41,792 bases of DNA from Bryobacteraceae bacterium (GTDB lineage Bacteria > Acidobacteriota > Terriglobia > Bryobacterales > Bryobacteraceae), in contig DATIRX010000218.1 in the NCBI GenBank assembly GCA_035469225.1, forward strand, positions 1-41,792. Reading direction: 5' to 3'. This document shows positions 29,162-41,792 of this stretch, piece by piece (position 1 is the stretch's first letter; each line of letters starts with the position of its first letter). The notes beneath the pieces were generated by a model that saw only the letters and a program-made list of their open reading frames with translations, did not search any database and was not told the DNA's origin. A program made the translations under genes and the position numbers.

Positions 29162-29177
29162 TATCATCTTGCTAGCA

Positions 29178-30338
29178 ATGGTTTTAGAGCTGGGAGCCAC
29201 GCAAGCTCAGATCCAGCGGATTCTTCAAAGCAAAGCGTTTCGTACTTCGGAAGTCCACCGTAATCTTCTGAGTTACCTCGCCGAGAAATCGCTTTCCGGC
29301 ACCGCCGACAGCTTGAAAGAATATACCGTCGGGCTGGACGTGTTTTCAAAGCCGTCTTCCTACGATCCGCGCCAGGAATCCACCGTCCGCATGCACGTGG
29401 CGCGACTCCGCCAGAAGCTCAGCGAGTATTACCGCACCGAAGGCGTGGACGATCCGATCATGGTGGATCTGCCCAAGGGCGCGTTCAAGCTGACGTTTGA
29501 GCCTCGCGAGATCCGCGTGGAAGCCGTTCCTGAGCCCGCCGTCGTGCCCGCGCAGCGCTTCTGGAGGCCGAAGGAAATCGCACTGGCAGCCGCACTCCTG
29601 ATAGCCCTGGGCTTGGCCGTCTATTTCGGAACGCGCTTGTGGCAGGTGGAGCGGGCCGACATTCAAGCCAACATCAACTGGACTCCCGAATTGAAGCAGC
29701 TGTGGGAGCCTCTGGTGTCTTCCAATCGACCTTTGATTATTTGCCTGTCTTCGCCGGATCCGGGCATTGGAGAAATGGGAACGGCCACCGGAGGGGTCCT
29801 GCTGGGGCAGTTCCTGGGGATGCTCCAGAAACGCGACGTGCTGGTCACCAGTAGCGACCAGATCGCGGCCCCCGAAGTCGCCATGGGCAACGTGGTCTTC
29901 CTGGGACCGGTGGTGGGGAACCGCCAGATGCAGGCTATGTCGGCGGACTGGCCATTTATGCTGGAGCCCGATGGAATCCGAAACACGCATCCCGCACCGG
30001 GGGAGCCCGGGTTGTTCAAGGACAAACCCCCGAAGGATCCGCAGGATACGGAAGAGAGCTATGCTCTGGTGAGCCGTGTTCCCGGTCTGTATGGCAATGG
30101 CGAGGTCCTGTACTTGTCGGGGAGCCGGATTTCGAGCATCACCGGCGAAGTTCAAGCCTTCACCGACCCTATGTTCGCGAAAACATTGGTCGCGAAGATG
30201 AAGAAGGCGGATGGCAGCCTGCCTCGCTACTACCAGGTGGTTCTCAAAGTGAAATCGATGGACAACATGCCCATCGAGGTGGCTTACGCCGCGCACCGGG
30301 AACTTCCCCGGCCCTCCCAGTCAGCCCCTAAACAGTGA
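29178..30338 (+). CDS. ToxR/CadC-like membrane-anchored regulator: N-terminal OmpR-type winged helix, one TM helix, uncharacterised periplasmic domain
   Basis: Wing motif STVRMHVARLRQKLSEYY...IMVDLPKGAFKLTFEP and TM helix IALAAALLIALGLAVYFG. A TTG at 29169 is an alternative start. Confidence 0.65.
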   Translation: MVLELGATQAQIQRILQSKAFRTSEVHRNLLSYLAEKSLSGTADSLKEYTVGLDVFSKPSSYDPRQESTVRMHVARLRQKLSEYYRTEGVDDPIMVDLPKGAFKLTFEPREIRVEAVPEPAVVPAQRFWRPKEIALAAALLIALGLAVYFGTRLWQVERADIQANINWTPELKQLWEPLVSSNRPLIICLSSPDPGIGEMGTATGGVLLGQFLGMLQKRDVLVTSSDQIAAPEVAMGNVVFLGPVVGNRQMQAMSADWPFMLEPDGIRNTHPAPGEPGLFKDKPPKDPQDTEESYALVSRVPGLYGNGEVLYLSGSRISSITGEVQAFTDPMFAKTLVAKMKKADGSLPRYYQVVLKVKSMDNMPIEVAYAAHRELPRPSQSAPKQ

Positions 30339-30357
30339 TTCTGTAAGCAGTTACAGT

Positions 30358-30379
30358 GTCACTCACCGGTCACTGACCG
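30358..30379. promoter_or_regulatory. Operator-like motif GTCACTCACCGGTCACTGACCG, copy 1
   Basis: 18/22 identical to 31938-31959. Contains the palindrome CGGTCA-C-TGACCG and GTCACT direct repeats 11 nt apart. Ends 77 nt before the ATG at 30457. Confidence 0.4.
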
Positions 30380-30456
30380 CTCTTGACCCCTCCGCTAGTG
30401 TAACCGCCCCTCCATCGTGTTAGTCTCCTCATGGGACTAGGTGCAGCCTTCAAAAA

Positions 30457-30954
30457 ATGATGTCTCTTCTCGAAATCGCCAAGTGGCTCCAGGAAACTCC
30501 AGGCAGTATTTCCATCCGGGAGTCGATTCTGATGTTCCCGGTGCTGGAGGGTTCTCATCTTTTGGGGATCGCTGTCTCGGCCGGAACCATCGCCATCTCG
30601 GATCTCCGCATGATGGGGCTCATCTTCAAGAAGGAGTCGGCCTCCGACGTCTTTCATCAGCTCATCCCGTGGACGAGCGCGGGTTTCGCGATGATGATCA
30701 TCACCGGAATGCTGCTGCTGTGGTCCGAACCCGTCAAGCTCTACAACAGCATCTGGTTCCGCTATAAAGTGCTGTTCCTGATTCTGGCCGGGCTGAACGT
30801 GTTGATCTTCCACTCCTCCAGGGTCTATCGCACCATCCGTGAATGGGAATGGGACGCGAACCCTCCGCGGGCCGCGAAGATCGCCGGCTGGGTGTCGCTG
30901 ATCAGCTGGGGCATCGTGATTATCGCCGGCAGGACCACGGCGTACAACTTCTAA
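30457..30954 (+). CDS. 4-TM membrane protein, type 1 (uncharacterised; H-x8-G-x5-DLR motif)
   Basis: Four hydrophobic helices. Shares WLQxT..IRES.L.FP, the H...DLR motif and LLLW with 34874-35401. Confidence 0.75.
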   Translation: MMSLLEIAKWLQETPGSISIRESILMFPVLEGSHLLGIAVSAGTIAISDLRMMGLIFKKESASDVFHQLIPWTSAGFAMMIITGMLLLWSEPVKLYNSIWFRYKVLFLILAGLNVLIFHSSRVYRTIREWEWDANPPRAAKIAGWVSLISWGIVIIAGRTTAYNF

Positions 30955-30960
30955 AAACCC

Positions 30961-31443
30961 ATGTGGCAATCCTTCAAACCGTTCTTTGAGTGGAGTGACA
31001 AGATTTGGCTGGGCCAGGCGATCTCGTCCACCGTGTGGGCCTTTCCGGTGATCGAAACGATCCATATTCTGGCCCTGACGATTATGTTCGGCGCCATCGT
31101 GATCATCGATTTGCGGATGATGGGCGTCGGCTTGAAGAAGCAATCGGTGGCGTTGCTGTCCAGGAGCCTGGACCCTTACATGACCACCGGGCTGGTAATC
31201 ATGCTGGCCACCGGGTTCATGCTGTTCACCTCGGAAGCCATGAAGTGCTTCGTCAACGATGGGTTCAAGTTCAAGATGGCGGTGCTGTTTCCTGCCGTCA
31301 TTTTCCAGTTCACCCTATTCCGCTGGGTGACGCACAAGACCGAAGACAAGCGCCCGATGCTGCTGGGCTGGGTCGTCGCGCTGCTATCGCTCACGCTATG
31401 GTTCGGCGTCGGCGTCGGCGGCCGGGCCATCGGATTTGTATAA
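30961..31443 (+). CDS. 4-TM membrane protein, type 2 (uncharacterised; H-x8-G-x5-DLR motif)
   Basis: Lies 6 nt after the previous gene. Shares WAFPV.E..HI...DLR..G.G.KK and a C-terminal GFV/AFV with 34408-34860. Confidence 0.75.
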   Translation: MWQSFKPFFEWSDKIWLGQAISSTVWAFPVIETIHILALTIMFGAIVIIDLRMMGVGLKKQSVALLSRSLDPYMTTGLVIMLATGFMLFTSEAMKCFVNDGFKFKMAVLFPAVIFQFTLFRWVTHKTEDKRPMLLGWVVALLSLTLWFGVGVGGRAIGFV

Positions 31444-31479
31444 TCGCAGTCGAGGGTTAAGCGGGGAGGACCGCGCGAA

Positions 31480-31908
31480 GTGTACCGAGGGATGAACGCC
31501 AGGTCGGCCGGCAGCACGGTCATACTCACGCTGGCCCTGTGCTCGGCGCCTTTGCTTGCCCATCACGCCTTTTCAGCGGTGTTCGATCTAGCCAAACAGA
31601 GAGACTTCAAGGGAACCATTTCCAGAGTCGAGTGGTTGAACCCGCACGCGCGTTTCCTCCTGGATGTCCCGCAATCAGGCGGAAAGACCATAAGCTGGGA
31701 GTTCGAGCTGGGCAGTCCCAACGCCCTCATGCAGCATGGCTGGAACAGGTACACGCTGAAGAAAGGTGACGTGGTTACGGTGACGGCTGTTCTGGCCCGG
31801 GACGGATCGAACTATGCGCATGCGCGCGCAGTCACGCTGGCGGGCGGCAGCCGGATTTGCGACTACGACCGGTTCAATGGCCCCGAGTGGTCGTGCCCCG
31901 AGAAGTAA
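31480..31908 (+). CDS. Small exported protein (DUF6152-like), predicted mature N-terminus His-His
   Basis: The GTG at 31480 is preceded by GGGGAGGA; the ATG at 31492 is an alternative start. The signal peptide ends CSAPLLA, followed by HHAFSAVFD...VEWLNPHARFLLDV. Confidence 0.7.
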   Translation: MYRGMNARSAGSTVILTLALCSAPLLAHHAFSAVFDLAKQRDFKGTISRVEWLNPHARFLLDVPQSGGKTISWEFELGSPNALMQHGWNRYTLKKGDVVTVTAVLARDGSNYAHARAVTLAGGSRICDYDRFNGPEWSCPEK

Positions 31909-31936
31909 CCGCAGCGCAACCTACTGAAACCACGAT

Positions 31937-31969
31937 AGTCACGACCCGGTCATTGACCGGCATGTGACT
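31937..31969. promoter_or_regulatory. Nested 33-nt palindrome AGTCAC-N3-CCGGTCA-T-TGACCGG-N3-GTGACT, operator-like motif copy 2
   Basis: 13 of 16 arm positions are complementary, and the inner 7-bp arms are perfect. The motif lies upstream of the TonB receptor ATG at 32014 (44 nt after the palindrome end, 54 nt after the conserved block). Confidence 0.4.
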
Positions 31970-32013
31970 TGTCTCCGGCGAGGATCAGGCCGCTCTCATG
32001 TTAGGCTCCCCGC

Positions 32014-34320
32014 ATGTCTATCTTCCAGGGGTACTTGTGTCTGGTTTTCTCTGCAGGGATCGGTCTGGCCCAGCAGCTTTCCATTTCCGGGACGGTTCGC
32101 GACGCCAGCGGCGTGGTGCCGGACGCATCCGTGACGCTTCGCGCCGGAGGGAATGCCCTTCGGACGACCACCACCGACGGCATGGGCCACTACGCCTTCG
32201 AGGGGTTGCGGGCAAGCTACTACGAGCTTTCGTTCGCGAAGTCCGGATTCGACCCGGTCACGCGAAATCTGGACCTCGGCGTCAATTCGGGCACTGTGGA
32301 TGTGACGCTGGCGGTAGGAGCAGTATCGTCCACCGTCACGGTAACGGACGTGGCCGGAAAAGCGACGGCTTCGCGTCTGGATATTCCGGATGAAGACTTG
32401 CCTGTGCAGGTCAGCTCCATTCCAAAGGAGCTCCTCCAGGAACAGGGCGTCAATGACATGGTCACGGCGTTGCGGAACGCCTCGGGGGTCCAGGCGCAGC
32501 GCTTCTATGGCGTCTACGAGCAGTACACCATCCGTGGCTTCAATGCGGGCGACGTGATGCTGGTGGACGGAATGCGGACGGAGGCCATCTTGAACCGCTA
32601 CAACACGCAACTGAACAATGTGGAGAGCGTGGAAATCCTGAAGGGGCCGAGTTCCGTGCTCTACGGCGGCGAGGCCGTGGTTGGCGCGATTAACGTGATC
32701 CGCAAGAAACCGCAGGGGCAGCGCGCGTACGACCTGTTGTACAAGGGCGGCCGGTTCAACACGCACCAGGCGGGCGGCGGCGCCACCGGACCTCTCTTTG
32801 GCAGTAACTCCTGGCTCTACCGGGCGGACGTGAGCCAGGACTATTCGGACGGCTGGCGGGGCGCGGGGGCGAACCGCTTCAACGCATCGCCGTCCCTAAC
32901 CTGGCTGATGAGCGAGCGATCGCGCGTCACGGTTCACCAGTCGTTCATCCGGGACAACTACAAAGGCGACGGCGGCGTGCCGGTCCGTTGGACCACGGCG
33001 CCGGGTTTCGATCCCAGTCGCCGGTTCAGCACACCGCAGGATTTCGCTCTGATCGAAGACTCGCAGACGCACGTCCTGTTCAATTTCAGCCTGTCCCCCT
33101 CATGGGAATTCCGCGACGGCTTCCTGATGCGGCGTACCAGCGAGGAATACTTCATCACGGAAGGTTCCCTGGGCTTCGATCCGGTAGCCAATGTGATCAC
33201 CCGCGAGGGCCTTCAATTCCACCATACCCGCCGGCCCAAGGTGAACCAGGCCGAACTCGTAGGACGCTTCAACTTCCTGAACATGCATCACACGGTGCTC
33301 ATGGGTTACGACTACCGCGACTTCTACACCAAGACCGGCACCACGGATGGCGGCGGTTTCTTCGAATTCACGCCCATCAGCCTGGCCGATTTCAAGGAAA
33401 CTCAGCCGCCCGTCGATCCGTTCAACATCGTGCGCTACACCTACTCTGCCAACCGGACGAACGCATTCTTTTGGCAGGATCAGATCGACCTCGGGCGCAA
33501 GATCAAGATCAACATCGGGGGCCGCTTCGACGATTTTGATCGCCACACCCATCGCATTTTCCTGACAGCTCCCAGCACGCTTACCAGGGTCCAGGCTGTG
33601 CATCAGAGTGCCTACACGTATCGGGCCGGCATCGTCTACGAACCTGTGACAGGCCATCAAGTATACGCGAACACGTCCAGTTCATTTACTCCGGTGCAGG
33701 ATTTTCTAACCGGCCTCGAGCTGAAGCCGCGCTATGGCCGCGGCTACGAAGCGGGCTATCGATGGCAGGGCTGGCAGGGCCGCATCCAGACCAGCATCGC
33801 GGCGTATCACATTGAACAGAACAATCTCAGCTTCACTACGTCTCCCGGAACGGTGGTTCAGGCCGGCAAGCAGACCTCCAAGGGAATCGACCTGGACATC
33901 AACGCGGATCTCAGCCATGGCACCCGGCTGGTCCTCAACTACGGGTACACCGTTCCGAAGTTCAACCAGTTCCTAGATCCCGATGACGGAGATTTGGCCG
34001 GGAACCTGCCCCGTTTTACGCAGAGGCAGGCGCTGAACGTGTGGCTACACAAGGCCTGGACTTCGGGATTCACCGCAGGCGTTGGCACGCGATACCTGGG
34101 CCCGATGTTCACCAACAATACCAACACTATCCTGTTGGGCGGCTGGACGACGTTCACCGGATCGGCCGGATACCGCAGGGAATCCTGGGAGTGGAACGTG
34201 CATGCGGAGAACCTGCTGAACCGGGAGCGCTACTTCCTCGGTTCGGATTACAGCAACCAGGTGTACCCGGGTGCTCCGATCAACGTTTTCGCCTCCGTGC
34301 GGTTTAGATTTAACCCTTAG
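32014..34320 (+). CDS. TonB-dependent receptor with N-terminal carboxypeptidase-regulatory-like domain
   Basis: Signal peptide, CarboxypepD_reg-like segment ISGTVRDASGVVPDASVTL...GHYAFEGL, plug motifs TIRGF and VESVEILKGPSSVLYGGEAVVGAINV, and a long beta-barrel. Confidence 0.88.
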   Translation: MSIFQGYLCLVFSAGIGLAQQLSISGTVRDASGVVPDASVTLRAGGNALRTTTTDGMGHYAFEGLRASYYELSFAKSGFDPVTRNLDLGVNSGTVDVTLAVGAVSSTVTVTDVAGKATASRLDIPDEDLPVQVSSIPKELLQEQGVNDMVTALRNASGVQAQRFYGVYEQYTIRGFNAGDVMLVDGMRTEAILNRYNTQLNNVESVEILKGPSSVLYGGEAVVGAINVIRKKPQGQRAYDLLYKGGRFNTHQAGGGATGPLFGSNSWLYRADVSQDYSDGWRGAGANRFNASPSLTWLMSERSRVTVHQSFIRDNYKGDGGVPVRWTTAPGFDPSRRFSTPQDFALIEDSQTHVLFNFSLSPSWEFRDGFLMRRTSEEYFITEGSLGFDPVANVITREGLQFHHTRRPKVNQAELVGRFNFLNMHHTVLMGYDYRDFYTKTGTTDGGGFFEFTPISLADFKETQPPVDPFNIVRYTYSANRTNAFFWQDQIDLGRKIKINIGGRFDDFDRHTHRIFLTAPSTLTRVQAVHQSAYTYRAGIVYEPVTGHQVYANTSSSFTPVQDFLTGLELKPRYGRGYEAGYRWQGWQGRIQTSIAAYHIEQNNLSFTTSPGTVVQAGKQTSKGIDLDINADLSHGTRLVLNYGYTVPKFNQFLDPDDGDLAGNLPRFTQRQALNVWLHKAWTSGFTAGVGTRYLGPMFTNNTNTILLGGWTTFTGSAGYRRESWEWNVHAENLLNRERYFLGSDYSNQVYPGAPINVFASVRFRFNP

Positions 34321-34322
34321 CC

Positions 34323-34338
34323 GTCCGCGGATGCGGAC
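34323..34338 (+). terminator. Hairpin GUCCGC-GGAU-GCGGAC 2 nt after the receptor stop codon
   Basis: Perfect 6-bp stem followed by AAAAC with no U-tract. It may only attenuate readthrough into 34408. Confidence 0.3.
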
Positions 34339-34407
34339 AAAACTCCGCCCGCACGTCACGTTTGTTATGATCGGTTCCGGTTTGTTGTCCGAAAGGTTGA
34401 ATCATTC

Positions 34408-34860
34408 ATGGCATTCTTTTTGGCTTACGATGTAGCAAACAATCCGCTGAATACAAATGAATGGGCGTTCCCGGTGTGTGAAGTGCTGCATATCATCGGG
34501 TTCGCCATTGCGATCGGAACCATCACCATGGTGGATCTGCGGCTTCTGGGGATCGGGATGAAGAAGGAAACGCCCGCGGACCTGGTAAGAGACACGGCTC
34601 CATGGACGCTGGGCGGCCTGGCACTGGTGCTGATCTCGGGTCCGCTGATTTTCTCCTCCGATCCAAATCTGTATCTGCACAACCTGTCGTTCCGGTTCAA
34701 GATTACAGCACTGGTTTTGGCGATCATCTTTAATTACACGATTCACCGCTGGGTAGCGCTGAAACACACCTCGGGCGGCGTGGCAGCTCTCACGGGCTTA
34801 GTCTCACTCCTCTTGTGGGTCAGCGTGGTGTTCGGCGGAATCTTCATAGCGTTCGTCTAA
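34408..34860 (+). CDS. 4-TM membrane protein, type 2 paralogue
   Basis: See 30961-31443. Motifs are WAFPVCEVLHIIGFAIAIGTITMVDLRLLGIGMKK and a C-terminal AFV. Confidence 0.75.
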   Translation: MAFFLAYDVANNPLNTNEWAFPVCEVLHIIGFAIAIGTITMVDLRLLGIGMKKETPADLVRDTAPWTLGGLALVLISGPLIFSSDPNLYLHNLSFRFKITALVLAIIFNYTIHRWVALKHTSGGVAALTGLVSLLLWVSVVFGGIFIAFV

Positions 34861-34873
34861 AGGGAGAAATCCG

Positions 34874-35401
34874 ATGCCTCCAGAATTCATCTTATGGCTT
34901 CAAAATACGTCGATCGCTACGGCCATTCGCGAGTCGGCACTGGTGTTTCCGATCATCCTGTCCCTGCATTTAACAGGGATGGGGCTGTTTGGCGGAATGA
35001 TCCTGATGACCGATCTGCGCATCCTGGGACTGGCGATGACCAAGCGCCCGGTTTCAGAAGTAGTGAACGGCCTGCGGCCGTGGAAGCACCTGGGGCTTAC
35101 CCTGACGGCCACCTGCGGAATCCTGCTGTTGTGGTGCAAGGTGGCGATCTATTACCCCAATCCATTTCTTCGGATCAAGCTGGCGCTGTTCGTGCTGATC
35201 CTGATTCACGCGCTGGTATTCCGGAGCGTTTATCGCAACATTACGGATTTGGATGGCAGTCCGGTGATTCCCGGGCGGGCGAAGGCGGCTGCGGTGCTCT
35301 CGATGGTCCTGTGGATCGGTGTAGTAACCTCGGGCCGTTGGATCGGCTATTGGGAGCCCAAGGGCGAGCCGGCGAACGCGGCCCGGGTGGTCAACCAGTA
35401 G
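34874..35401 (+). CDS. 4-TM membrane protein, type 1 paralogue
   Basis: See 30457-30954. Motif is WLQNTSIATAIRESALVFPIILSLHLTGMGLFGGMILMTDLR. An AGGGAG Shine-Dalgarno sequence lies upstream. Confidence 0.75.
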   Translation: MPPEFILWLQNTSIATAIRESALVFPIILSLHLTGMGLFGGMILMTDLRILGLAMTKRPVSEVVNGLRPWKHLGLTLTATCGILLLWCKVAIYYPNPFLRIKLALFVLILIHALVFRSVYRNITDLDGSPVIPGRAKAAAVLSMVLWIGVVTSGRWIGYWEPKGEPANAARVVNQ

Positions 35402-35409
35402 CGGCGGGT

Positions 35410-36240
35410 TCAACTCGTTACAAGCTCTTCGGGGTCTTCCTCGACGCGCGGCTGCACGTTGCGGCGGACCAGGATCGCCAACACCACGGTTGTGGCCAGC
35501 GTAATGGCGCCGCCGGTGATGTGCGAGGCGACCGTTATCACCACAGGCAGGGCGGTCTCCTCCGCCATGGATCTCATGATGAGCGCGGTCATGCCCAGGA
35601 ATACCTGGCCGAAAGCCACGCCTAACAGGGCCTTAGCAGCAGCCTGGAGGGCGCGGTGGGATTTGAATTGCTGCAGCACGAAGATGCATTGCATCAGAAT
35701 CACCAAAGCCACAAACATCGCGCCTAATACGTGCGGCATTAAAGTCATGGCCTTCTGCCGGAAGGCCGCCCCGAGCGCGATCTGCATCAGCACCAGTACC
35801 GGACTGACGATGGCCAGCGACCGGTTGGACGGCCAGCCATAGTCGTGGACCAACTCGGGGCCGCGGGACCAGGCCGGCGATGTGACGGTAGCGATGGCTA
35901 CTAAAGCGGCGAAGAAAAGCTGCGCCAGGCAGGCGTGCGCGATTCGCGCTGTTTGCGGGAGCATCGCTTGCACGGCCGACATGCCCGCGACTCCCTCCAG
36001 CGCCGCGATCGTCAAGGTAAGAAACCCCAGGAGGCGCGCCTCCCGGCGAGGATCGGACACCACCAGCCAGATCGTCAGGCCGAGGGTCAACAGGCCCATC
36101 GCGATCGCCGCGGCGCGGTGTGCGGACATCGCCGAGGGATCCACTGCCGTCCCCGAGCCGGCGATGGCTCCGTCGATAATCAGCAGGAGTGCGCCGACGG
36201 CCAGCAGGATGGCAAAGCGGTGCAGCCAGACTTTCTTCAT
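35410..36240 (-). CDS. COX15/CtaA-like (haem A synthase family) membrane protein
   Basis: The internal ATG at 36240 gives MKKVWLHRFAILLAV. There are about 7-8 TM helices with His residues in or near TM segments (HRF, HRAAA, AHACL, PHVLG, ASHITGG). The family call rests on overall pattern only. Confidence 0.6.
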   Translation of the reverse strand: MKKVWLHRFAILLAVGALLLIIDGAIAGSGTAVDPSAMSAHRAAAIAMGLLTLGLTIWLVVSDPRREARLLGFLTLTIAALEGVAGMSAVQAMLPQTARIAHACLAQLFFAALVAIATVTSPAWSRGPELVHDYGWPSNRSLAIVSPVLVLMQIALGAAFRQKAMTLMPHVLGAMFVALVILMQCIFVLQQFKSHRALQAAAKALLGVAFGQVFLGMTALIMRSMAEETALPVVITVASHITGGAITLATTVVLAILVRRNVQPRVEEDPEELVTS

Positions 36241-36252
36241 GGAGCTATCTCC

Positions 36253-36280
36253 ATCATAGGACGGATGATTGACAGGTCTA
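36253..36280 (-). promoter_or_regulatory. Possible promoter TAGACC-16-TATGAT for the CtaA-like gene
   Basis: On the minus strand, TATGAT corresponds to plus-strand 36253-36258 and TAGACC to 36275-36280. It lies back-to-back with the plus-strand promoter. Confidence 0.3.
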
Positions 36281-36297
36281 GGCGCATCTAGTAACAT
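36269..36297 (+). promoter_or_regulatory. Sigma70-like promoter TTGACA-17-TAACAT for the large TonB receptor gene
   Basis: Perfect -35 at 36269-36274, a 17-nt spacer, and a -10 at 36292-36297. A GAAGGGG Shine-Dalgarno sequence precedes the ATG at 36335. Confidence 0.5.
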
Positions 36298-36334
36298 CGG
36301 CGCTAGATTAGCTACTCGCTTTAGAAGGGGAATT

Positions 36335-39300
36335 ATGCGTTTCAGATCCAGGTTGTATCTCGCCGTTTTGGCATTGGCGCTGGGAGCCAGTCTTTGGGGA
36401 CAGGCCACTTCGCAGATTCAAGGAGTGGTGTTGGATCCCGCGGGCGCCGCCGTTCCAGCCGCAGAGATCAAAGCCACGCAGACCGATACGGGCATCGTCC
36501 GGACTACCACCAGCGGCAACGACGGTACCTACGCGCTGGCCAATCTGCCGATCGGCCCCTATCGTGTGGAAGTCACCAAGCCGGGATTCTCCACCTACGT
36601 GCAGACGGGAATCGTGCTTCAGGTGGGGTCGAATCCGACCCTGAATGTGTCTCTCAAAGTGGGCGCGGTGAGCGAGAGCATCCAGGTGGAGGCGAATACC
36701 ACGCAAGTGGAGACGCAGGCCACCAGCATCGGCGGGGTGATCGAGAACAAGCGTATTCTCGAACTGCCGCTCAACGGACGGAACGCGGTGGAGCTTATCG
36801 CCCTTGCCGGCGCAACGATTCCCGGAGGGAAAAACGGCACCGCGGGCTTCCCGGGCGGACTGAATTTCTCGGTGGCGGGCGGCCAGCTCTCGGGCATCGG
36901 CTACTTTCTGGACGGAACCGCGTACAACAATCTATTCGACGCGGTGAATCTTCCGTTTCCCTTCCCGGACGCGTTGCAGGAATTCAAGGTGGAGACCAGC
37001 ACGCTTACGGCGCAGAACGGAACCCACTCGGCCGCGGCTGTCAGCGCAGTGGTGAAATCGGGCACGAATCAGTATCACGGCGACGCGTTTGAGTTTCTGC
37101 GGAATGCCGAGATGAATGCGCGCAACTTCAAAGCTCCGCGCCGCGACACCCTGAAGCGCAACCAGTACGGCGGCACGTTCGGCGGTCCGATCATGCAGAA
37201 CAAGCTGTTCTTCTTTACCGGGTACCAGGGAACCAAAACGCGGTCTGACCCCGCCGATCTAACCGGATTCGTTCCCACTGCGCAGATGCTGGCGGGCGAC
37301 TTCACCGGATGCTCCACCTTCCCTGCCACGCTGCGAGATCCCAACGGCGGAACGTTCTCGAATCGTCAGATTCCGACTGGCCGGTTCAGTCCGCAGGCCC
37401 TGGCGATCGTCAAACTGCTGCCCACTACGACGGATCCCTGCGGGAGAACTCCCTACGGTCCCGTCACCAAGATCAACGAGTACCAGGTGCTGGGCCGCAT
37501 GGATTACCAGATTAGCGCCCGCCAGCAGCTCTTCGGCCGGTATATGGCGACGACATTCCTGCAGCCGGCGTCCTACGGGTTCTCGAAGAACCTTCTGGAC
37601 ACCACTCAGGGCGGGCTGGATAACCTGGCGCAGACATTCACCCTCGGGCACACGTTCCTGATTTCGCCGACCACCGTAAACCAGTTCCGGACGTCGGCCA
37701 ATCGCGTTGCGGTCCACCGCTTCAACGACGACTACTTTTCGGGCTGCGACCTGGGCGTGAAAATCTACTGCTATCTGCCGCATCAAACGGTAGTGGGCGT
37801 GACGGGAGGCCCGACCATCGGAATCGGAACAGCGGTGGAGGCGGCCTTCGTACCCACCAATTACACGATGTCCGACGACGTCAATCTGATTCGCGGATCG
37901 CATCAGTTTGCGTTCGGATATTCGGGTTTCAAGTACCAGCACAGCCAGAAGGCCAACGTTTTTTCGGTAGCCTCCTTTGCGTTTAGCGGTCTGGTTTCAG
38001 GCCTAGGAATGGCAGACTTCCTGCTGGGGCAGAGCAGCGGCTTGACACAGGCGACTCCCAATACGGTGTTCACGACCAAATGGGGTCACAGCCTGTACGG
38101 ACAGGACACGTGGAAAGTAAACCGACGGCTGACGCTCAACCTGGGCATACGGTGGGAGCCGTTCCTTCCACAGAGCCTCAATAACGGGGCCGTTTTCAAT
38201 TTCAGCCGGGACCGCTTTAATGCGGGCGTGCACAGCACCGTATTCAAGAATGCTCCCGCCGGACTGCTGTATGCCGGCGATGCGGGATTCGAAGGAAATA
38301 CCGGCGTGAACAAGCGGTACAACCAGTTTGCGCCGCGCATCGGAGCGGCCTTCGATCCGAAAGGCGACGGCAGAACGTCGATTCGGACTTCGTTCGGAGT
38401 GGCCTACGATTTCCCGAATATCCAGATCATGTCTACGCCGGCCACGGCTCCGCCCTTCGCCAGCACGGTGAACGTGCCAGGCCCGCTCAGTTTCGCGGAT
38501 CCGTACGGGAACTTCCCGGGCGGGAATCCGTTCCCCGGCAACTTTACGGTCGGACCCAATGTGCCTTTTGTAGCTTTCGGTTCATATGTCGCGCAGCAGC
38601 CGGACGCCCGCGGCACCACCGTGCTCACGTGGAACTTCGCGGTGCAGCATCAGTTTGGAAAAGACTGGCTGGTTTCGGCGACGTATCTGGGCACAGAGAC
38701 GTCCCATCTGTGGGTGAGTTTCCAGCTCAACCCCGCGGTGCCTACGATAGCCGGGGCGAACACGGGGAACACCAACACCCGGCGGTTAGCGTACCTAAGG
38801 AATCCATCCGCCACCGAGGGAGGCCTGCTGGGATTCGTCGATCAGTTCGAATCCGGCGGGACGGCCAGTTACAACGGAATGATTCTGTCATTGCAGAAAC
38901 GCCTGAGCCAGGGCATCAGCTTCAATGCGAACTACACGTGGTCTCACTGCATCGGCGACGTAACCATCGGCTCCCTGGTCGGCGGCGCGGGCGGCACCTA
39001 CTCGGATGCCAATGACCGGCGTCGCGACCGCGGGAATTGCCAGACGGGCACGCTGGATGGAACTCAGGCCCTGGATCGGCGGCACATCGCGAACTTCAAT
39101 GCGGTGCTCGAATCTCCCAAGTTCAAGGGTGCCATCCTGCGGACGCTGGCCAGCGACTGGAGGCTGTCGCCCAGCTACCGGATCTTATCGGGCGCGTTCC
39201 AGACGGTTACCACCGGCATCGACTTCGCGCTGACCGGAGCAGCGGCGCAGCGTCCCAACCAGGCGCTCGCGAATCCTCTGTGTGAGCACCCCAACGCGGC

Positions 39301-39592
39301 TTGCTGGATCAACCCGGCAGCGTTCACGCAGCCGGCCAATGGCACGCTGGGCAATCTGGGGCGGTCCAACGTCCCCGGGCCCGGTTTCTGGACCGTCGAC
39401 ATGGCGCTCTCCCGCGGCTTCCGCGTGCGCGAGAACATCAATGTCGAGCTGCGCGGCGAGGCGTTCAACCTGACCAACAGCTACCGTGCGGGGCCCGTTA
39501 CAACGGCTCGTAACAACACGGCGCAATTTGGGCAGATCCTGACGGCGCAGGATCCGCGGATCATGCAGGTGGCGTTGAAACTGGTTTTTTAA
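36335..39592 (+). CDS. Large TonB-dependent receptor / CarboxypepD_reg domain outer-membrane protein (Oar-like, 1085 aa)
   Basis: Signal peptide MRFRSRLYLAVLALALGASLWG. Motifs IQGVVLDPAGAAVPAAEIKA...GTYALANLPIGPYRVEV and ELPLNGRN, and a C-terminal beta-barrel ending ALKLVF. Confidence 0.88.
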   Translation: MRFRSRLYLAVLALALGASLWGQATSQIQGVVLDPAGAAVPAAEIKATQTDTGIVRTTTSGNDGTYALANLPIGPYRVEVTKPGFSTYVQTGIVLQVGSNPTLNVSLKVGAVSESIQVEANTTQVETQATSIGGVIENKRILELPLNGRNAVELIALAGATIPGGKNGTAGFPGGLNFSVAGGQLSGIGYFLDGTAYNNLFDAVNLPFPFPDALQEFKVETSTLTAQNGTHSAAAVSAVVKSGTNQYHGDAFEFLRNAEMNARNFKAPRRDTLKRNQYGGTFGGPIMQNKLFFFTGYQGTKTRSDPADLTGFVPTAQMLAGDFTGCSTFPATLRDPNGGTFSNRQIPTGRFSPQALAIVKLLPTTTDPCGRTPYGPVTKINEYQVLGRMDYQISARQQLFGRYMATTFLQPASYGFSKNLLDTTQGGLDNLAQTFTLGHTFLISPTTVNQFRTSANRVAVHRFNDDYFSGCDLGVKIYCYLPHQTVVGVTGGPTIGIGTAVEAAFVPTNYTMSDDVNLIRGSHQFAFGYSGFKYQHSQKANVFSVASFAFSGLVSGLGMADFLLGQSSGLTQATPNTVFTTKWGHSLYGQDTWKVNRRLTLNLGIRWEPFLPQSLNNGAVFNFSRDRFNAGVHSTVFKNAPAGLLYAGDAGFEGNTGVNKRYNQFAPRIGAAFDPKGDGRTSIRTSFGVAYDFPNIQIMSTPATAPPFASTVNVPGPLSFADPYGNFPGGNPFPGNFTVGPNVPFVAFGSYVAQQPDARGTTVLTWNFAVQHQFGKDWLVSATYLGTETSHLWVSFQLNPAVPTIAGANTGNTNTRRLAYLRNPSATEGGLLGFVDQFESGGTASYNGMILSLQKRLSQGISFNANYTWSHCIGDVTIGSLVGGAGGTYSDANDRRRDRGNCQTGTLDGTQALDRRHIANFNAVLESPKFKGAILRTLASDWRLSPSYRILSGAFQTVTTGIDFALTGAAAQRPNQALANPLCEHPNAACWINPAAFTQPANGTLGNLGRSNVPGPGFWTVDMALSRGFRVRENINVELRGEAFNLTNSYRAGPVTTARNNTAQFGQILTAQDPRIMQVALKLVF

Positions 39593-40499: not shown

Positions 40500-40569
40500 G
40501 AAAGCTCCTTAGGCCGTTCCCGATTCTACCGCTGGCGAAGGGACGCCGCTACTGCGTATCATCGTGTGC

Positions 40570-41792
40570 ATGGATTCGGCCGTCCTGATGCACCGTCTCC
40601 ACTTCGCCTTCACGATCACGTTTCACTATCTGTTTCCGCAGCTGACCATGGGGCTGGCGCTGCTGATCGTCATTCTGAAGACGGCCGCGCTGCGCACCGA
40701 TGACCCGCGCTATCACGCCGCCGCCCGTTTCTGGGGGAAGATTTTCGCGATCAACTTCACGATGGGCGTGGTAACCGGGATCCCCATGGAATTTCAGTTC
40801 GGAACAAACTGGGCGGGGTTTTCGAAAGCAGCCGGCGGCGTGCTCGGGCAGACGCTGGCGATGGAGGGCGTCTTCTCGTTCTTTATGGAGTCAGCCTTCC
40901 TGGGATTGTTCCTCTTCGGCGAAAAGCGTTTGAGCCCCAGGCGCACTGGGCTTCGGCCTTTCTGGTGTTTCTCGGATCGTGGCTATCGGGATTCTTTATC
41001 ATCGCGACCGATGCGTGGATGCAGCATCCGGTGGGCTACTCGCTGGGCCCGGATGGCGCGATCCGGCTGGACGATGTCTGGGCGGTGCTGCTGAATCCCT
41101 GGGCGTTCTGGCAGTATCTCCATAACATGATCGCTTCGGTGGTCACAGCCAGTTTCGTGATGATGGGACTGGGCGCATTCTATCTGCTGCAAGGCCGGAG
41201 CACGGAGCATGGCCGGATATTTGTCCGCACCGGGGTGGTGGCGGGCTGCATCGCATCCGTGCTGATGATCTTTCCGACGGGCGACCGGCAGGGTAAGAAC
41301 GTGGCGACGTATCAGGCCGTCACGCTGGCGGCGATGGAGGGCTTGTTTGAAAGCAAGGAAGGCGCGCCCATCGCACTGCTGGGCCAGCCGGATATGCAAA
41401 AGAAGCGGCTGGATAATCCCCTGCTGGTGCCGCGAGCGCTGAGCATGCTCACCTATCAACGATGGAAGGCGGAGGTGAAAGGCCTGAATGCGTTTCCGCC
41501 GGAGCAGTGGCCGGATAACATCCCGCTGCTGTACTACAGCTACCACATCATGGTCGGGCTGGGGACCATTTTCATCGCGATCCTGGCGGTCTCCACCGGG
41601 CTGCTGTGGACCGGACGGCTGTATCACGCACGGGGATGGTTGTGGGTGACCATGCTGTCGCTGCCCTTTCCCTATATCGCGACCACAGCCGGCTGGATCA
41701 CCGCCGAAGTCGGCCGGCAGCCGTGGCTCATTTACGGCCTGATGCGGACCAGCCAGGGCGCGTCCATGAATGTTTCGGCGGGGAACGCGCTG
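40570..41792 (+). pseudogene. cydA: Cytochrome bd ubiquinol oxidase subunit I, interrupted by a -1 frameshift near 40935-40938; 3' end cut by window edge
   Basis: Frame 1 encodes MDSAVLMHRLHFAFTITFHYLFP...GEKRLSP and then diverges to a stop codon at 41094. The adjacent frame continues AHWASAFLVFLGSWLSGFFIIATDAWMQHPVGY...QYLHNM...GRQPWLIYGLMRT to the window end. Confidence 0.8.

Follow-up and report, generated by a model that had tools for sequence, protein, structure and literature searches.

What is the function of a small exported protein whose mature chain is predicted to begin with two histidine residues? The question was raised by an open reading frame (ORF) at 31480-31908 on the forward strand of a 41,792-nt stretch of DNA from a Bryobacteraceae bacterium (contig DATIRX010000218.1, assembly GCA_035469225.1), which is called the window below. 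A first-pass annotation had described a small exported protein here, and we found the ORF as described, with a Sec-type signal peptide. The product belongs to the Pfam family DUF6152 (PF19649; E 3.5e-26; 91.6 bits against a gathering cut-off of 27; profile positions 4-94 of 98). Our reading, to which we give a probability of about one half, is that it is a periplasmic metal-binding protein with an oligonucleotide/oligosaccharide-binding (OB) fold, which hands an ion to, or receives it from, heterodimers of CopD-like DUF6644 membrane proteins.

The evidence that carries this reading begins with the conservation of three histidines. We pooled 359 non-redundant DUF6152 domains from databases, the host genome and fetched loci, and used an alignment of 102 sequences with 35-87% identity (alignment A2). 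Only four columns of A2 were invariant, H24, H25, P51 and H52; W48, N50, D32 and E72 were conserved in at least 90% of the sequences. The first-pass annotation had proposed aligning homologues as a check on the His-His pair, and both residues proved to be identical in all 102 sequences. Among the pooled domains, the first histidine was present in 358 of 359, the second in 356 and the histidine of the N-P-H loop in 353, and the complete triad was found in 352. This pattern is far beyond chance. The window protein carries the motifs of the family, namely the His-His start, the W-x-N-P-H loop and G-S-P-N / G-W. The segment VEWLNPHARF, which had been noted earlier as conserved in appearance, contains W48, N50, P51 and H52 and is indeed conserved. 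An exhaustive search (E <= 0.001) returned 8,835 cluster representatives of DUF6152, and neither DUF6152 nor DUF6644 was mentioned in the searchable literature. DUF6152 is a catalogued but unstudied family of very large size.

The position of the His-His pair relative to the signal peptide was then derived from the predicted start and cleavage site. The listed ORF begins with GTG 31480, and a GGAGG sequence sits 10 nt upstream of this codon. ATG 31492 is the probable start, because most of the closest homologues (identity up to 87%) have 138 residues and begin at the equivalent Met. Translation from this ATG gives a precursor of 138 residues and a predicted mature protein of 115 residues; the mature chain is identical with either start. 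Residues 1-23 show a positively charged n-region and a hydrophobic core, and positions -4, -3 and -1 are Pro, Leu and Ala. Judged by the -3/-1 rule and by conservation, the most likely point of cleavage by signal peptidase I is behind Ala23. In the family, Ala occupies -1 in 339 of 359 domains and Pro occupies -4 in 267, and position -3 is Leu, Ala or Val. The -3/-1 rule was obeyed at the Ala|His-His site in 335 domains, compared with 221 at the nearest alternative site. With Ala at -1 and His at +1 and +2 almost invariant, the earlier proposal that His-His opens the predicted mature chain held up. Other readings of the N-terminus were rejected. Export by the twin-arginine translocation (Tat) pathway was discarded because the twin-arginine motif is absent from the sequence. 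A lipoprotein was discarded because Leu comes directly before the Cys of the hydrophobic core, a context at odds with a lipobox, and because this Cys is not conserved. An amino-terminal Cu(II)- and Ni(II)-binding (ATCUN) site was also discarded, in agreement with the first-pass annotation: the mature chain starts with H-H-A, so residue 3 is Ala, and 339 of 359 relatives have Ser or Ala at this place.

The -3/-1 rule, the order of domains in fusion proteins and the incomplete triads of internal domains together suggested that the N-terminal position of His-His is itself important and that the pair lies at a free N-terminus. In database DUF6152 proteins the median position of the first histidine was 24; where it came later, it still followed a signal-peptide-like P-x-x-A segment, and these cases resemble over-extended gene calls. 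Among 63 longer proteins we found 44 fusions of DUF6152 to a partner domain, in which DUF6152 always came first and His-His lay at residues 16-36. Three fusions had the opposite order. Two of them carry a signal-peptide-like segment ('PAWA') just before His-His and are probably merged gene calls, and the third has no His-His. Eight proteins contain two DUF6152 domains in tandem (P0130, P0160, P0199, P0204, P0121, P0187, P0188 and P0189), and the internal second domain never holds the complete triad: in four the His-His pair is retained and the loop histidine is replaced by Arg or Asn, and in the other four His-His is missing.

A structural model placed these residues on a predicted OB fold. 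AlphaFold modelling from the single sequence gave a predicted local distance difference test score (pLDDT) of 39 and was unusable, so the AlphaFold2 model built from the 102-sequence alignment was used (mean pLDDT 90.7; predicted template modelling score 0.80). This model is made up of five strands, with a helix inserted between the third and the fourth; the N-P-H motif is part of the loop that joins strands 1 and 2, and Glu72 ends strand 3. The matches listed by Foldseek and VIA-align were OB-fold proteins only (SSB, PriB, the LysRS anticodon domain and CcmE), with Z of 8-9.5 for the top matches over residues 33-120. Because the match spans residues 33-120, the His-His segment (residues 24-32) would form an N-terminal extension of the barrel. 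The model thus predicts an OB-fold barrel and not a sandwich of the type found in CopC or lytic polysaccharide monooxygenases (LPMOs). CopC, YcnI, CusF and beta-sandwich copper proteins were not among the matches listed, a result that by itself does not exclude sandwich proteins. A Pfam scan of the window protein at E <= 0.01 returned DUF6152 only, with no match to CopC (PF04234) or to LPMOs. No relative of DUF6152, DUF6644 or the barrel partner described below came up when PDB sequences were searched with profiles, and the ESM Atlas gave nothing beyond family names. The first-pass annotation had taken a histidine at position 1 as the hallmark of the brace sites of CopC/PcoC and LPMOs. His1 of the predicted mature chain is near-invariant in DUF6152; the sequence shows no kinship to CopC or LPMOs, and the model has an OB fold.

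DUF6152 is highly expanded in the host genome. The 4.7-Mb genome carries 59 DUF6152 genes, and 47 of these lie directly beside a gene of a second exported family of about 260 residues, here called the barrel partner, which has 152 copies in the same genome. The window copy is one of the 12 that have no adjoining barrel partner. The partner family has the motifs C-x-P-x-G-x-P-R, D-G-R-x-H and W-E-G-D-T-L-V-V and two invariant Cys residues; examples outside the window are L008:669-1439(+) and L038:2444-3247(-). It is also the partner domain that follows DUF6152 in the 44 fusion proteins. It matched no Pfam family and had no sequence relative in the PDB. In one host-genome paralogue (C106:6508-7650, reverse strand), all three signature histidines are gone together, H-H being replaced by Q-R and N-P-H by N-P-S; the adjacent members of its array retain all three.

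In the window, the constant neighbours of the DUF6152 gene are DUF6644 genes. DUF6644 proteins have four helices, and the first helix contains an invariant His followed by G-x5-D-L-R (alignment A3, in which the His is H34). By the positive-inside rule this His is placed near the periplasmic end of the helix. DUF6644 genes formed adjacent pairs of two subtypes in every locus examined, including the pairs at 30457-31443 and 34408-35401 of the window. Association with DUF6152 extends beyond this locus. In five other Acidobacteriota genomes, six of eight DUF6644 pair loci had DUF6152, the barrel partner or both within 1.5 kb, and the DUF6644 pairs of three Pseudomonadota metagenome-assembled genomes (MAGs) adjoin one or both of these families. 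One host-genome operon has the order barrel partner, DUF6152, DUF6644, DUF6644, and similar operons were found in the Pseudomonadota MAGs.

DUF6644 appears to be remotely related to CopD. Sub-threshold matches were obtained to DUF2214 for 6 of 10 DUF6644 members, to UPF0093/HemJ for 2 of 10 and to CopD for 1 of 10. The sole match to the CopD model in the host genome was a DUF6644 gene, at a score below the CopD Pfam cut-off, which none of the DUF6644 members scanned reached. Our literature search found no paper connecting HemJ, CopD and DUF2214. When 95 DUF6644 sequences were compared with six acidobacterial CopD sequences by hhalign, the probability was 61% (E 8e-5, 93 columns); the controls (COX15-like, PepSY_TM and ToxR-like proteins and reversed CopD) gave 0.1-0.4%. 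After Escherichia coli YebZ had been added, the invariant DUF6644 His aligned with His154 of YebZ. The H154A mutation of YebZ abolishes copper uptake, and YobA, its CopC partner, was modelled docking beside a neighbouring conserved His of YebZ (PMC11923076). The same study reported that truncated CopDs with four helices make up about one third of the CopD family (PMC11923076).

Comparison of orthologous loci separated the constant part of the cluster from its variable part. Two MAGs and about 24 metagenome contigs contain orthologues (69-99% identity) and share one common cluster. Its order is a ToxR-like gene, two DUF6644 genes, DUF6152, a variable cassette, two DUF6644 genes, a COX15/CtaA-like gene on the opposite strand and a gene for a large CarboxypepD_reg barrel. 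The cassette slot, where 31909-32013 and 34321-34407 lie on either side of the receptor gene in the window, holds a TonB receptor, a PepSY_TM protein of the FoxB/PiuB kind, both, or nothing. On a contig with a 99%-identical DUF6152 gene, the receptor is absent except for its last few codons (L069:1190-1440), indicating a recent deletion. Since so close a relative lacks the receptor, receptor adjacency is a variable feature of the locus, and flanking by DUF6644 is the constant one. In the host genome, 5 of 44 TonB-type receptors lie within 3 kb of a DUF6152 gene, and 5.6% of the genome is that close. The first-pass annotation had argued from the adjacent TonB receptor to a periplasmic shuttle for a metal or ligand. 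With a variable slot and receptors barely enriched near DUF6152 genes, this argument is weak. The shuttle itself fares better, as a role in metal handling fits the neighbourhood, and the flanking DUF6644 genes are a better argument for it than the receptor.

The window protein also belongs to a distinct clade of the family. Its two C-terminal Cys residues, which the first-pass annotation had pointed out, are real (C123 and C135), yet they are confined to this clade and are not a feature of the family. Of 21 DUF6152 genes with DUF6644 as their only flanking family, 20 encode the Cys tail together with Val at mature position 7; the Cys pair occurred in none of 97 DUF6152 genes flanked by the barrel partner family f0. 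In place of Glu at mature position 7 and of the usual barrel partner, the window clade has Val and DUF6644 flanks, and it has in addition the Cys pair and two extra invariant histidines, His82 and His110. These two His and two Cys, a His2Cys2 set specific to the clade, may be a further site; alternatively, the Cys residues may form a disulfide and the His residues may act as contacts.

From these results we propose the following mechanism. The gene would yield a Sec-exported periplasmic OB-fold protein of 115 residues, with a mature chain starting with His-His. Its free amino group, the imidazoles of His1 and His2, and His29 (mature numbering) would build a transition-metal site, with Asp9 and Glu49 probably assisting, and this site would be histidine-brace-like on a new scaffold. 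Members of the window clade do not pair with the barrel partner and are encoded between two DUF6644 pairs instead. Hand-over would resemble that of CopC/CopD (YobA/YebZ) or YcnI/YcnJ, with the protein capturing the ion once it is past the outer membrane. In loci that have the cassette, the TonB receptor would be the route of entry, and the PepSY_TM reductase may release the ion. The ion would then be passed to, or taken from, DUF6644 heterodimers in the inner membrane. Our results show the membership in the family, the pattern of conservation, the predicted fold, the linkage of the genes and the remote similarity to CopD; from these we infer the cleavage site, the binding of metal by DUF6152, its identity and the direction of transfer. 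Copper is the favoured metal because of the CopD link and the precedent of brace sites; the receptor and the FoxB-like cassette point to iron, and nickel or zinc is possible.

Several points weigh against this proposal. The siderophore-type receptor and the FoxB-like PepSY_TM protein indicate iron at least as much as copper. The number of paralogues (59) is odd for a simple metallochaperone and would better fit a diversified enzyme or binding module. Similarity between DUF6644 and CopD is moderate, with probabilities of 46-61% (E 8e-5 to 2e-4). No fusion of DUF6152 to DUF6644 or CopD was found among the 63 longer proteins, although this search was word-based and its result is weak evidence. 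The cleavage site that would expose His1 is a prediction, and the tip of the model is less confident than the rest (mean pLDDT 76 for residues 21-30). Finally, four internal second domains retain His-His where there can be no free N-terminus.

Four other explanations were weighed. DUF6152 could be a metal-bearing catalytic or redox subunit, similar to LPMOs or to the CuB site of particulate methane monooxygenase, with a copper site that acts on a small molecule. In most members the barrel partner would present this molecule, and DUF6644, the COX15-like protein and the PepSY_TM protein would feed electrons. The 59 DUF6152 and 152 partner genes, the adjacency of 47 of the 59 and the 44 fusions form a pattern known from substrate-diversified enzyme families, and the membrane neighbours come from families that include haem-binding redox proteins (UPF0093/HemJ, which DUF6644 matches weakly, COX15/CtaA and PepSY_TM). 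For the window protein we consider such a role unlikely, since its clade has no barrel partner, the window offers no clue to a substrate and the DUF6644 His aligns with a residue of YebZ needed for copper uptake; moreover, the N-terminal-His proteins of a published survey showed little oxidase or peroxidase activity (PMC12537917). The histidines might instead bind haem or another tetrapyrrole in a periplasmic carrier comparable to the OB-fold haem chaperone CcmE, which was among the Foldseek matches (rank 16). The COX15/CtaA-like and PepSY_TM neighbours would suit a haem carrier, and some TonB receptors import haem, though models of haem receptors fit the window receptor far less well than siderophore models, to which it is closest. 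The CcmE match was no better than generic OB matches, and the CcmE-type His-x3-Tyr tail is missing. Ligation of haem also needs no free N-terminus, yet the N-terminal position is strongly preserved, and we regard a haem carrier as distinctly improbable.

The conserved residues could also serve without any cofactor, as a surface on which the barrel domain or DUF6644 docks or latches, or as a pH-sensitive switch, in an OB protein with a ligand-binding or scaffolding role. The OB fold is a common scaffold for binding proteins and ligands, DUF6152 is strongly co-inherited with its partner proteins, and the four internal domains that retain His-His have no free amine. What makes this improbable in our view is the combination of three invariant histidines with a conserved Asp and Glu and with the first His at the mature N-terminus, which is the typical signature of a metal site. 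In addition, one paralogue has lost all three histidines together, and internal domains always lose part of the triad. Cleavage of the signal peptide at a different point, such as behind mature residue 5, is also conceivable and would remove His-His or leave it internal. The A-F-S|A site obeys the -3/-1 rule in the window protein and in 221 of 359 relatives. However, it is far less conserved than the Ala at -1 and the Pro at -4, which are conserved in their position relative to His-His, and the most conserved residues of a family would not be expected inside a cleaved signal peptide; a cut at another site is thus very improbable. Transfer of a metal ion between an N-terminal-His OB protein and DUF6644 remains the reading that we prefer.

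A wider proposal would make DUF6152 a new and very large brace-type class built on the OB fold, which together with the barrel partner and DUF6644 pairs would constitute an undescribed periplasmic system for metal and redox chemistry. The window clade would then be the metal-acquiring or metal-loading branch of this system, with an N-terminal His3 site and a His2Cys2 site, fed by a swappable cassette of TonB receptor and PepSY reductase. We offer this wider proposal as a speculation that is unlikely to be correct as a whole. New here are the clade without the usual partner, the cluster of four CopD-like genes with a swappable cassette, a DUF6644 His that aligns with a CopD His of proven function, and the His2Cys2 set. 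If the His-His tip does bind metal, few unstudied families of exported bacterial metalloproteins would be larger than DUF6152, which is present in dozens of copies in single soil genomes. The N-terminal-His solution would then have evolved on the OB fold as well as on beta-sandwiches. The compact syntenic cluster of CopD-like proteins, a putative dedicated regulator and an interchangeable receptor or reductase is the cleanest functional handle so far and makes the idea directly testable.

The features of the locus are collected in Table 1. A scan of positions 30250-35500 for promoters and terminators gave nothing above the shuffled background. The COX15/CtaA-like protein has only a partial match to the haem A synthase family, and its gene ends the cluster in all the longer orthologous loci. 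After the cluster, an outer-membrane protein of 1107 residues (CarboxypepD_reg and OMP_b-brl_4 domains) is encoded at 36269-39592 on the forward strand and is syntenic in the orthologous loci. Further downstream, subunit I of a cytochrome bd oxidase is split over two forward-strand ORFs in different frames (40564-41094 and 40965-41792; Pfam positions 2-118 and 128-387). The ORFs overlap, and a pseudogene, a frameshift or an error in sequencing may account for the split.

Table 1. Features of the DUF6152 locus, with positions counted from the first nucleotide of the window
Feature	Positions	Strand	Basis and remarks
Putative ToxR-like membrane regulator	29169..30338	+	Head of cluster; conserved upstream in 14 metagenome loci; no Pfam match
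DUF6644 membrane protein T1, four predicted transmembrane helices, CopD-like	30457..30954	+	Pfam PF20349; alignment A3; hhalign against CopD
DUF6644 membrane protein T2	30961..31443	+	Pfam PF20349, E 4.3e-16; 48-nt gap before DUF6152 gene
DUF6152 gene	31480..31908	+	Listed ORF with GTG start, likely true start ATG 31492; Pfam PF19649
Predicted Sec signal peptide, 23 residues, ending P-L-L-A	31492..31560	+	-3/-1 rule; family conservation
His24-His25, predicted mature residues 1 and 2	31561..31566	+	Conservation in pooled domains (counts in text)
Asp32 (mature Asp9), candidate carboxylate ligand	31585..31587	+	Asp in 342/359 domains
W48-L-N50-P51-H52 loop; H52 (mature His29), third invariant His	31633..31647	+	Alignment A2 and pooled domains (counts in text)
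Glu72 (mature Glu49), candidate ligand	31705..31707	+	Glu in 340/359 domains
His82	31735..31737	+	Invariant (79/79) in Cys-tail clade; variable in 291 other domains
His110	31819..31821	+	Invariant (79/79) in Cys-tail clade; Asn or Ser elsewhere
C-terminal tail C123-D-Y-D-R-F-x6-C135	31858..31896	+	Clade-specific
TonB-dependent receptor, 768 residues (CarboxypepD_reg, Plug and barrel)	32014..34320	+	Pfam/NCBIfam; closest to siderophore-type receptors
DUF6644 membrane protein T2b	34408..34860	+	Pfam PF20349
DUF6644 membrane protein T1b	34874..35401	+	Pfam PF20349
COX15/CtaA-like membrane protein	35410..36408	-	Pfam PF02628, E 1.3e-11; same place in loci L013 and L014 and in 16 metagenome loci

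CusF is a periplasmic OB-fold metallochaperone for Cu(I)/Ag(I) that passes its metal to a membrane transporter; its His/Met/Met/Trp site lies inside the barrel, and it is not known to have an N-terminal His. The DUF6152 protein shares with CusF a small periplasmic OB fold, as predicted, and a conserved Trp (W48) beside the candidate ligand loop. The candidate ligands differ, since neither of the DUF6152 alignments A1 and A2 contains a conserved Met.

Close parallels are the CopC/YobA-CopD/YebZ and YcnI-YcnJ systems, in which a periplasmic or extracellular Cu(II) protein with a His1 brace stands next to an importer of the CopD family (PMC11923076, PMC12362106). The DUF6152 protein resembles them in being exported, in its predicted His1 and in being encoded beside CopD-like membrane proteins. 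In the second system, Cu(II) moves between YcnI and the CopC domain of YcnJ (PMC12362106). Two DUF6644 proteins of four helices would together provide eight helices, as in full-length CopD. CopC and DUF1775 differ from DUF6152 in that they show no sequence kinship to it and have a beta-sandwich instead of the predicted OB fold; the candidate site here comprises His1, His2 and the loop His.

Periplasmic binders with an N-terminal His have been identified by 'signal strapping', including DUF4198 (Ni), DUF6702 (Ni/Co/Cu; His1, His28 and His32) and Ang-1/Ang-2 (Cu); neither the paper nor its supplements name DUF6152 (PMC12537917). As is predicted for DUF6152, these proteins carry a His right after the signal peptide, and their gene neighbourhoods contain TonB receptors or metal permeases. 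A further conserved His follows about 28 residues on, at His28 in DUF6702 (PMC12537917) and at His29 in DUF6152. The binders of that survey are beta-sandwiches, in contrast to the OB fold predicted for DUF6152, and their His1 is conserved at 65-79% in DUF4198 and DUF6702 (PMC12537917), compared with more than 99% in DUF6152.

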